In this document: piece after piece, positions 50,401 to 53,400 of the stretch
Layout of the letters: every line of letters starts with the position of its first letter
Numbering within the stretch: the first letter of the stretch is position 1
Assembly (NCBI RefSeq): GCF_964194025.1
Contig: NC_134478.1
Location: 44,082,001 to 44,146,000 of the forward strand
From: Convolutriloba macropyga
Lineage: Eukaryota
DNA: 64,000 nt
Direction of reading: 5' to 3'
The notes under the pieces: model-generated
What the model saw: the letters and a program-made list of their open reading frames with translations, nothing else
Databases searched by the model: none
Told to the model about the DNA's origin: nothing
Program-made: the position numbers and the translations under genes

Positions 50401-53400
50401 GCACGAGTTAGCACAATTGCTTGAAGTAAAGCTTAAACACGCCACACTTAAGCACGCGCAATCTGTAGGTGTTGTTGAGAGAGCACACGGAGCGCTGAAA
50501 AGAATTCTTAAACTCAATACGAATGAACAATGGTCCAACTGGCACAAATATGTGCCTCTAGCAACCTACATTCATAATACCTCATATTATTCGTCAATAG
50601 GTTGCACACCCACATCAATTTTTCACGGTCGTGCACCGATTAAACCCTTGGATGTGAGGTTCAACAATAAAAATTTGAAAAATCTTGATCCAAAATCTGA
50701 CTTTGTTATCCAATTGCAAGATGCTATGCAGCAAAAATTCTCCGAGAATAAGTCAAAATTAATACACGCTTATCACAAGTATCGAACATACTATGACGAA
50801 AAAGCACTTTCAAGCCCTCTAGCACTTAATTCGTTTTGTCTGCTACTTAACCCAAAGCTCATGAATCAATCTGACTTTGGATATAAATCAATGACTGTTT
50901 GGCTGCCGTTGTATCGAATTGAGAGAGTACTCACAAATTCAAACTACCTGATTCGGAAGGTTGGCACTTTGTTCACTCAATGTGTACACCGTATAAGACT
51001 TAGACCCTATACACCAAACGTGAAGCCATCAGATCTTGATGACATTGATCCGGACAAATTCGTTCCTGATCCTCTTTTGGGAAAAACAGACAAGAACCAG
51101 AATTGTTTGATGAACAAATTCCAAAAGTGCTTGAACACCACTTTATTGACGACGTGCCACAAGAAAATCAAGAAGATCAAACAGAGCAACAACCTGCAAC
51201 AGTCACACTCTCTTTCCCAATAGCCGCAGCAGGAGCACTGCCTGCACCTGCTGTAGCTCCAATAGTTCCCCATGTCCCTGCTCAGCCTTTTCAACCGGCA
51301 GAAGACGCGGGCAACCTACAAGGAGAGCAGATGGCCAACATTCCAATAGAAGAAAATGACGAAGTCGTAGACAACTTTGCTGAACTTCCATTTTTCCCAG
51401 AACTAAATAATGAAAGTGAAACTGAACAATTTGAACAGTTCAACGGCCAAAACGCAGACAGAGAGCCACAGCAAACCACGACAGAGCCCGACAATACGCA
51501 AGAGGAGTCACAGTCCGATGAGTACGAGCAAACAGAAACACCAATAACAATTAAGTGTGAAGCAGGACGCAATTTATTTTAAGACAAAGAAAGACAATTA
51601 AAGACTCAATCACGAAAAGTACAATTCAAAAAAGGAACACGTTCTCCACCACCTGCTTGTAAAGATCACCCGCACATGATTCGTACAATAGACGGGAAGA
51701 TGTTGATTCCACATTCGCATTTAAAAAAGTCGGAAAAACAAAGTAATATTAAGCAGTCGTATAGAAAAACATGGAACGTCTAGTCAAAAATCCTGATGCA
51801 GCTGAATCAAGAGCGACAAAACTTGACATCAAAAGAAGCAAAGAAGTGAAAAATCAACAATTAGGTGAAACTGAAGCACCTGGACCCAGTACTTCAACTC
51901 CTAGAACAACGTCATCAAAGGAAGTTTCACCAATAGCAAAACTAGCTGTTGGTTGCAGATCTAGAATCAGAAAAGCCACAGAACAAACCAATTCCAGTAA
52001 TATTAGTAATATACAAGCAAGTCATCTGAGAGTTTTTTATCACAAATCAACTATTGAACAATTTGATGACACTGTAGTCCAAACTACATCTATTGATAAT
52101 TTATTAGACAAGTTAAAGCAAATGAATATTAATTTAAACCACATCAACCTATATCACCTAACAAGTCAGTGTTCAATAGGATCTGTTATTTTTGTTTTTG
52201 ACAACATCAAAAACCGGACTGTGTTCAATTTGATAACCAAAAATTCAGCATCCGAACGAACAAGTTACCCATCTCTAGCAGCATGTTTATCTACTTTGAA
52301 ATATCAGATAAAAGACAAAAATATCAAAAAACTTGCTATACAGCAATCTGACTATTCTGCAGGACTGCATTGGCCTCATGTTTGCAAAATTATTTTGCAA
52401 AAATTGGCTTCCTTACAAATTGAATTACGCATTTTCATTAAAAAAAAAGTTTTCCAGTAGAAAAAGAAAGTGCGAATCAGTGCAACACATTCGTTGCTTC
52501 GATTGGTGCACTTTTCATATGGACGTCTTGTTTTCTTACTTCAAGAAACTTCGAAAAAATTAAGGTAACCAAACTTGAAAAAAAATCAAAAATGTCAATT
52601 TTCTATTTCAAAAATTGGTTCCAGACCCCTAAAAGGGGGGGACAAACATCCTTTCTGGTCATCTCTGACTTATTGGCAATGCTCTTTTTGCAAACTTTTA
52701 ACATTTTTTTTCCAAACCTACCCCAGACGGCGGATTTTGCATGAAAATGACAAAAATAACAATTTTTTTCAAAAAAAGACAATATTTGAAATAATTAATA
52801 TCAGATTTCATAACTACGGTCAAACACTACAGTAACCGCAAATTTCCAATGAGTTTCAAACATTTCTTTACTCAATTGCTTGGAAATAAATGAATGCCAA
52901 CAATGAAATTTTTATGAGTTCTGTAAAGTTTAAACCAGTTTTTAGTCTTTATCGGTCCGCAGCCTTTTTGCAGCTCGAGGACCTATTTCGCCATTTACTA
53001 GGCGAGAATCGAACTCATTGTCAACGCTAAAAACAAAAAAAGAGATGAAAAAAAAACGTTGATTTTCAAAAAAAAAGATGGAAAAAGATGAATTTTTTAC
53101 TAACTCGGCATTTGGCACATCAATTAAAGGTTCGCAGTAATACCCTCTCCCTGGTATGTGCTTGTTCACTAGAAGCAAGGCTGAGTGGTTGTTCTGTGAA
53201 TCTAGACTATGATGGTATCTGACCCAGACCGAATCATCGCTGCCATAGTCGAAGTAGACGCAGATGTCTACATCCATCAGATATGCCAACGCCAAATACT
53301 AAATGAGACCAAGATAAAAAACTAGACCAAGCAATTTTGTGAAAGTTTGAGTTAAACAATTACCCAGTGGTCTCCCACAGGTCCCGTGCCGTTCATTGAA

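Follow-up and report, generated by a model that had tools for sequence, protein, structure and literature searches.

What does a macrodomain do at the end of a retroelement polyprotein? Macrodomains in viruses are a sign of conflict with the PARPs of the host, and those of alpha-, corona-, and rubiviruses counter these enzymes. The question is raised by an open reading frame in the window analyzed here, a stretch of 64,000 nucleotides from Convolutriloba macropyga. An earlier sequence-only reading had described this ORF as a TARG1/OARD1-like macrodomain that is fused behind the integrase, where chromoviruses carry a chromodomain, and had suggested that it either erases ADP-ribose or reads it and thereby tethers the integration complex to PARylated chromatin.

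The retroelement that carries the ORF

The ORF belongs to a 13.5-kb env-bearing LTR retroelement of the Ty3/gypsy type (Table 1), as indicated by its LTRs, target-site duplication, primer-binding site, polypurine tract, gag, and a pol order of PR-RT-RH-IN. As only 2 of 566 aligned LTR bases mismatch (99.6% identity), the insertion is recent. The first pol piece matched Pfam RVT_1, RT_RNaseH, and Integrase_H2C2 and was 67% identical to the related Pol P0015, and the second matched Pfam rve (E 1.1e-9) and was 78% identical to P0014 and P0015. The dUTPase-like segment matched the Pfam-dUTPase regions of P0053 (34.5%, E 2.8e-7) and P0022 (E 2e-10). It is flanked by the same junction motif that is described below and would be a second captured nucleotide-metabolism domain in Pol.

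Table 1. Features of the retroelement, given as positions in the window
Feature	Position	Strand	Basis
5' TSD copy ATTAG, 5 bp	44432..44436	+	sequence
5' LTR, 565 bp	44437..45001	+	comparison with 3' LTR
Primer-binding-site-like TGG stretch	45002..45015	+	read off sequence
gag ORF with CCHC-like knuckle	45548..46801	+	named by position; zf-CCHC E 0.12 only
pol piece 1: protease, dUTPase-like segment, RT, RNase H, start of integrase zinc finger	46732..50127	+	
dUTPase-like segment between protease and RT	47371..47634	+	
pol piece 2: integrase core and C-terminal domain	50015..51223 (homologous part ~50081-51085)	+	
Acidic/Pro-rich Pol tail, with stop at 51580-51582 inside	51070..51780	+	colinear with P0014 and P0037 tails
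Final linker part in the macrodomain reading frame	51765..52007	+	39-46% to P0014, P0015, and P0037 linkers
ISNI, weak form of the protease-site-like motif	52002..52013	+	motif matrix score
TARG1/DarG-class macrodomain with degenerate ADP-ribose loops	52008..52457	+	profile, model, structure matches
Lys equivalent to TARG1 Lys84	52239..52241	+	alignment
QQSDYSAG, replacing TARG1 P118-R126	52341..52364	+	alignment
env ORF, 772 aa	54735..57053	+	anatomy; Atlas lead
Polypurine tract	57369..57379	+	sequence
3' LTR, 565 bp	57380..57944	+	comparison with 5' LTR
3' TSD copy ATTAG	57945..57949	+	sequence

The env ORF has a basic RVKR site ahead of a Gly-rich hydrophobic stretch and a hydrophobic C-terminal anchor. 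It had no significant match in Pfam or PDB searches, and its Atlas lead was Fusion_gly (33% of members, score 0.93). From this anatomy and the Atlas lead, it probably encodes an F-type class I fusogen. The 2.3-kb gap between pol and env (52460-54735) contains three antisense ORFs, at 53955-54404 (149 aa), 53591-53902 (103 aa, CxxC-containing), and 52942-53298 (118 aa). None of them had a significant Pfam match, and NCBIfam searches with the 149-aa and 103-aa ORFs were blank. Joined by splicing, the three might form an accessory gene on the antisense strand.

The ORF is predicted to encode a TARG1/DarG-class macrodomain

The ORF is open from 51765 to 52460 (231 aa, Met at 51771), in agreement with the coordinates given before. 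The full ORF alone gave no Pfam Macro match, and in a PDB sequence search it reached TARG1 only at E~1. With the 150 residues encoded at 52008-52457, a search of 1.84 billion representatives retrieved 13 relatives, ten of which matched Pfam Macro at E 0.05 or better. When the PDB was searched with a profile made from five degenerate domains and no canonical member, TARG1 (E 2.5e-7) and DarG (E 5.2e-6) were recovered; the hit of an alternative profile that included canonical TARG1-like rows is partly circular, and the degenerate-only profile was relied on instead. The NCBIfam DarG model was matched at E 3.8e-5, with 23.1 bits against a cut-off of 250.

The single-sequence AlphaFold model of the domain was poor (pLDDT 48), and the model made with a 20-row alignment reached a pLDDT of 87.8. 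The best Foldseek match of the latter was TARG1 (E 2.4e-9, TM 0.74), and DarG was found at E 6.8e-9. VIA-align comparisons gave Z 15.7 with TARG1 (rmsd 2.9, 133 aligned) and Z 15.6 with DarG (rmsd 2.7, 136 aligned). Profile, AlphaFold, and Foldseek thus agree on the TARG1/OARD1-like macro fold that had been proposed, and membership in the TARG1/DarG (ALC1-like) class is secure.

No longer homologs of the domain were found among 174 candidates of a word-based search, and when the canonical P0020 domain was compared with proteins of 999-3180 aa, only P0020 itself was recovered among 241 candidates. A precomputed Pfam Macro label was present on only one of the 99 long integrase homologs considered below. 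Pfam thus hardly detects the domain, which has probably escaped notice until now.

Relatives carry the domain in frame at the end of Pol

In the window copy, the macrodomain is out of frame with pol. Frame changes occur near 50030-50090 (two), 51070-51100 (one), and 51765-51800 (one), in addition to the stop codon in the Pol tail, and this copy is therefore broken and unable to make the domain as part of Pol. All these lesions fall within 1.8 kb (50030-51800), in contrast to the nearly identical LTRs and to gag, env, and 3.4 kb of pol, which are open; they may have been inherited from a defective parent or may be assembly errors. One more lesion is seen in the protease, whose active-site motif differs from that of the relatives.

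From 46912 to 52442, the pol pieces align colinearly to P0015, a natural Pol of 1,852 aa, so that some 1,850-1,900 codons are the right size and the earlier estimate of roughly 1,890 codons holds. In P0014, P0015, and P0037, a single unbroken stretch corresponds to the tail upstream of Met 51771 together with the linker downstream of it. An in-frame domain after the integrase was detected in 18 of the 99 long integrase homologs with the first profile (two partial or marginal) and in 25 after profile iteration (one partial and without a full integrase), with a best E of 0.79 in the reversed control of the iterated profile. In a quick tree, which left out 17 of the 99 homologs with short integrase coverage, half of the relatives in the 35-row clade around the window (17/34) carry the domain. 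The remaining 17 stop at scattered points, 18-363 aa past the integrase match, as broken copies would, real loss being another option.

Three of the five nearest relatives (P0014, P0015, and P0037) are fused, and two end early. The two closest matches, P0001 and P0002 (86-87% identical), are fragments that are both truncated within the domain, and the relatives found include no intact member of the subfamily to which the window copy belongs. The fused relatives end Pol with the domain, as P0015 does. The claimed fusion after the integrase is thus correct with respect to the reading frame in relatives but not with respect to distance, as the domain lies about 325 aa behind the integrase match (323-331 aa in the window lineage) and not directly after it. 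A chromodomain was not matched in the window pieces, in five long relatives, in P0066, or in the precomputed Pfam lists of the 99 homologs.

The 294-aa fragment P0010 has a TARG1-like macrodomain upstream of Integrase_H2C2, with LNSI before the domain, and thus the same domain class at another Pol position.

A protease-site-like motif precedes the domain

In nine long Pols, the motif [IVLMF]N[ASLQENT][IVLF] occurs after the protease (6/9), before the RT (7/9), before the integrase (7/9), and before the macrodomain (6/9), and also at two other conserved places that are not obvious junctions (4/9 each). We infer that it is the protease site of the element; its likeness to foamy-virus cleavage sites is no part of this argument. 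Of 25 element proteins, 13 have the motif ahead of the domain, with a chance of about 5% per search window, as does one of five other TARG1-like domains, this one being P0010, itself an integrase-linked fragment; all of these counts come from relatives and are not independent samples. We also trained a matrix of four residues on the integrase-upstream site of 56 proteins. Its best site in the tail fell 12-40 aa ahead of the second strand of the domain in 15 of 24 proteins, compared to 2.8 expected.

Relatives carry VNAI, LNSI, or FNAI at the place of the ISNI of the window, which scores 2.9 (up to 11.3 in relatives), is only second-best in the window ORF, and misses the strict pattern. In the window lineage, the strict pattern is found in one of five proteins (P0014). 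Because the motif that marks the remaining junctions of Pol is also found immediately ahead of the domain, the protease of the element probably releases the domain from the integrase, unlike a chromodomain. The analogy to a chromodomain is therefore probably positional only, and the long spacer also speaks against a functional counterpart as it had been proposed.

The window lineage seems to have lost the ADP-ribose pocket

Residues are numbered according to the alignment with TARG1, and 13 canonical-looking domains served to define the conserved columns, so that for these 13 the counts are circular. Of the 30 hydrophobic columns of the core, 25-27 are kept in the six window-lineage domains, compared to only 5-8 of the 16 conserved polar or Gly columns. 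The equivalent of Lys84, the LITK lysine already recognized from the sequence, is present in all six, and S, G58, and Trp are also retained. G121 is replaced by D or E, and both G123 and D125 are lost, in all six domains. The position of D125 is occupied by A in the window and by N, G, or Q in relatives, and the window loop, which had been correctly read as QQSDYSAG, is one residue shorter. The G43 loop (G43-I44) is replaced and shortened, and the His of AHC is lost in the window lineage. In terms of a TARG1-type hydrolase, the catalytic Lys is thus present, and Asp125 and the Gly-rich loops are absent.

For TARG1 itself, excerpts of PMC5928194 report that the exchanges G43E, I44E, and G123E abolish ADP-ribose binding and catalysis, that G123E is not recruited to damage sites/PAR, and that G43E and G123E retain RNA binding. 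K84A and D125A impair hydrolysis, as stated in parts of bioRxiv 10.64898/2026.03.31.715305. In the same class, DarG is active although it lacks the Asp, and SCO6735 although it lacks the whole dyad (in parts of PMC9411070 and PMC7050489), and the G128E exchange strongly lowered the activity of SCO6735 (PMC9411070, in part).

From the alignment, the domain of the window lineage seems to have kept the fold and lost the ADP-ribose pocket. Erasing of ADP-ribose by this lineage is unlikely, and reading of PAR is less likely still, because reading needs the diphosphate loops that are altered here; the macrodomain of the window copy is probably inactive. The eraser idea of the sequence-only reading hence remains plausible for sister lineages with intact loops but not for this one, and the idea of a reader that tethers the integrase to PARylated chromatin is not supported, given the altered loops and the behavior of TARG1 G123E. 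RNA binding as a retained role is disfavored, as charge and basic residues are not conserved: the RNA-binding residues R86 and R126 of TARG1 are absent from the lineage domains, whose net charge ranges from -2 to +9.

Repeated change between canonical and degenerate domains

The sister domains of P0019, P0020, P0036, P0040, and P0066 keep the motifs AHC/S-S-D, GxA, and PxxGCGxD. With canonical and degenerate labels assigned by eye, a careful 27-row integrase tree rejected the grouping of the 15 degenerate rows as one clade (AU p 4.5e-5), and at least three changes between the canonical and degenerate states are needed on this tree. The count itself gives no direction; as the canonical state matches TARG1, the direction was presumably loss. 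The clearest case is the canonical P0066 beside the degenerate P0032 and P0034, with integrase identities of 83-86%. The domain clades mirror the integrase clades, and in the macrodomain tree the 16 element domains group together at a support of 81/77 only.

The domain diverged 4.0-6.5 times faster than the integrase in five of the six pairs of the window lineage and 1.4 times faster in the sixth (P0015/P0037), compared to 2.1-3.5 times in canonical pairs with an integrase distance above 0.2. Three sub-lineages separated by 1.1-1.7 substitutions per site nevertheless have a full-length domain that ends at the last strand, although divergence of this depth should have produced 10-16 stops in the absence of selection, an argument that is biased to survivors in view of the early-ending half of the clade and of the truncated P0001 and P0002.

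Proposed role of the domain and alternatives

Our main reading, to which we assign a probability of about 0.5, is that the domain is a protease-released part of Pol that would act as an eraser in canonical or ancestral lineages and as a pseudo-enzyme with an ADP-ribose-independent role here. An ancestor of this Ty3/gypsy group would have acquired a TARG1-class macrodomain, attached to the Pol C-terminus by a long flexible tail. Pol would be packaged, and the protease of the element would cut just ahead of the domain, so that the freed macrodomain would be a small accessory protein apart from the integrase. In lineages with intact loops, it would most likely remove ADP-ribose that host PARPs have attached to the RNA, cDNA, or proteins of the element. 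In the window lineage, in which the pocket appears to be lost, the fold kept, and evolution fast, it would most likely be a binding module independent of ADP-ribose, which might for example antagonize a host factor or act as its decoy. The main reading is favored by the fold, the in-frame position, the pocket loss, the retention of the domain, the cleavage motif, and the repeated change. Against it count the weakness of the cleavage motif in the window lineage, the tolerance of dyad loss in ALC1-class enzymes as seen by analogy with DarG and SCO6735, and the variable net charge with loss of R86 and R126. No partner or surface for the new role was found.

The domain of the window lineage could alternatively be the vestige of a once-useful hydrolase that now decays under little selection. 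The fast divergence of five of the six pairs, the half of the clade that ends before the domain, and the truncation of both nearest copies within it would be expected in this case, and we regard such decay as the most serious competitor, though unlikely; the full-length sub-lineages, the retained hydrophobic core with K84, S, G58, and Trp, and the low ratio of P0015/P0037 argue for constraint. That the kept lysine and a rearranged pocket still remove ADP-ribose is rather improbable: the lysine is invariant in the lineage and the activities of DarG and SCO6735 give this idea some credit, but an acidic residue in the diphosphate loop of all six domains, together with the loss of G123 and the AHC His and the shortened G43 loop, weighs against it, as does the effect of G128E in SCO6735.

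A domain that stays on the integrase and steers insertion to PARylated chromatin like a chromodomain would fit its place C-terminal to the integrase within one polyprotein and the weak cleavage motif of the window lineage. We nevertheless consider it very improbable in view of the altered binding loops, the failure of TARG1 G123E to reach damage sites, the junction motif ahead of the domain in most sister lineages, and the spacer of 323-331 aa, as against about 65 alignment columns between GPY/F and the chromodomain in beet elements (PMC3605345, in part). Expression of the domain from its own Met (51771) and not within Pol, finally, would account for its frame in this copy, for the P0001 protein (89% identical) that was called from the same Met, and for the parallel with fish ERVs that carry macro domains as extra ORFs (PMC4977317, in part). 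It is the least probable of the explanations, as tail and linker are one continuous stretch in P0014, P0015, and P0037 and the window pol is also interrupted by a stop and three further frame changes.

Comparison with known systems and significance

Macrodomain capture as such is not unprecedented, because database annotations place macrodomains in some retroelement polyproteins and P0010 has one upstream of the integrase. The domain of the window shares the minimal macro fold, Lys84, LITK, a Y, and the LxW pattern with human TARG1/OARD1 (C6orf130), but is only about 20% identical, lies in a retroelement Pol, and, in its lineage, has G43, G121, G123, D125, and the His replaced. With the DarG antitoxin it shares the fold and a catalytic lysine without the Asp; unlike DarG, it has no DarT partner in the window, is flanked by retroelement genes, and misses the NCBIfam cut-off. 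The macrodomains of alpha-, corona-, and rubiviruses are likewise carried in viral polyproteins, but belong to another class (VIA-align Z 9-12 to the window domain).

Chromoviruses and chromodomain-bearing errantiviruses also have a host-type chromatin or signaling domain C-terminal to a Ty3/gypsy integrase, whereas here it is a macro and not a chromo fold, with a spacer of 130-370 aa and a probable protease site before the domain. The arrangement LTR-gag-pol-env, the RT-RH-IN order, and a putative F-type-like env are shared with env-bearing Ty3/gypsy elements (errantiviruses in the broad sense of PMC13524379) such as Oikopleura Tor (PMC4402516), and Tor4b also has a gap between pol and env (PMC4402516), a likeness of gene order. 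The fish epsilon-like ERVs are LTR retroelements with a captured macrodomain as well, but, compared by description only, they are Retroviridae with the domain in extra ORFs and not at the Pol C-terminus (PMC4977317, in part, citing Basta et al. 2009 for these ORFs).

Full-text literature searches, with Repbase and most subscription papers outside their scope, turned up no report of a Ty3/gypsy Pol that ends in a macrodomain. The term "macro" is absent from the main text of the errantivirus survey PMC13524379, the four of ten matches examined in its supplements were species names, and as a whole word it is absent from PMC4402516. Such a fusion is also not described in the main-text parts covered of bioRxiv 2021.11.30.470311, PMC4695847, and bioRxiv 2026.07.25.740670, although the first of these has domain tables in which it might be listed.

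TARG1-class enzymes clear ADP-ribose from DNA and RNA bases, according to parts of PMC9411070, PMC7050489, and bioRxiv 10.64898/2026.03.31.715305, and the contrast between working-looking relatives and a pocket-less lineage hints at a conflict with ADP-ribose defenses of the host. Only tentatively, and with more doubt than the main reading, we suggest that an env-bearing Ty3/gypsy group delivers a protease-released TARG1-class eraser as a counter-defense and that several lineages, that of the window among them, independently turned it into fast-evolving pseudo-enzyme decoys. If true, a counter-defense eraser would reveal a PARP-based host defense against retroelement RNA or cDNA. The intact-looking and repeatedly degenerated Pol domains are in any case a natural protein panel for host ADP-ribosylation of retroelement nucleic acids.

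Genomic surroundings

The element, of which the window offers a single insertion site, lies in sense orientation in an intron of a host proteasome AAA ATPase gene, which we take to be RPT6/PSMC5-like, with exons at 43658-44026 and 60048-60716. These exons are about 16 kb apart, and the break falls at the Walker A motif (GPPG/TGKT). An intronless host gene at 23818-25194 encodes LSM14, FDF, and YjeF_N domains and is presumably EDC3-like. An AT-rich repeat with a period of about 515-540 bp forms two arrays, at 33300-35200 and 62300-64000, about 29 kb apart, and an inverted repeat of 44 bp (86% complementary, 13-nt spacer) is located at 42539-42639.
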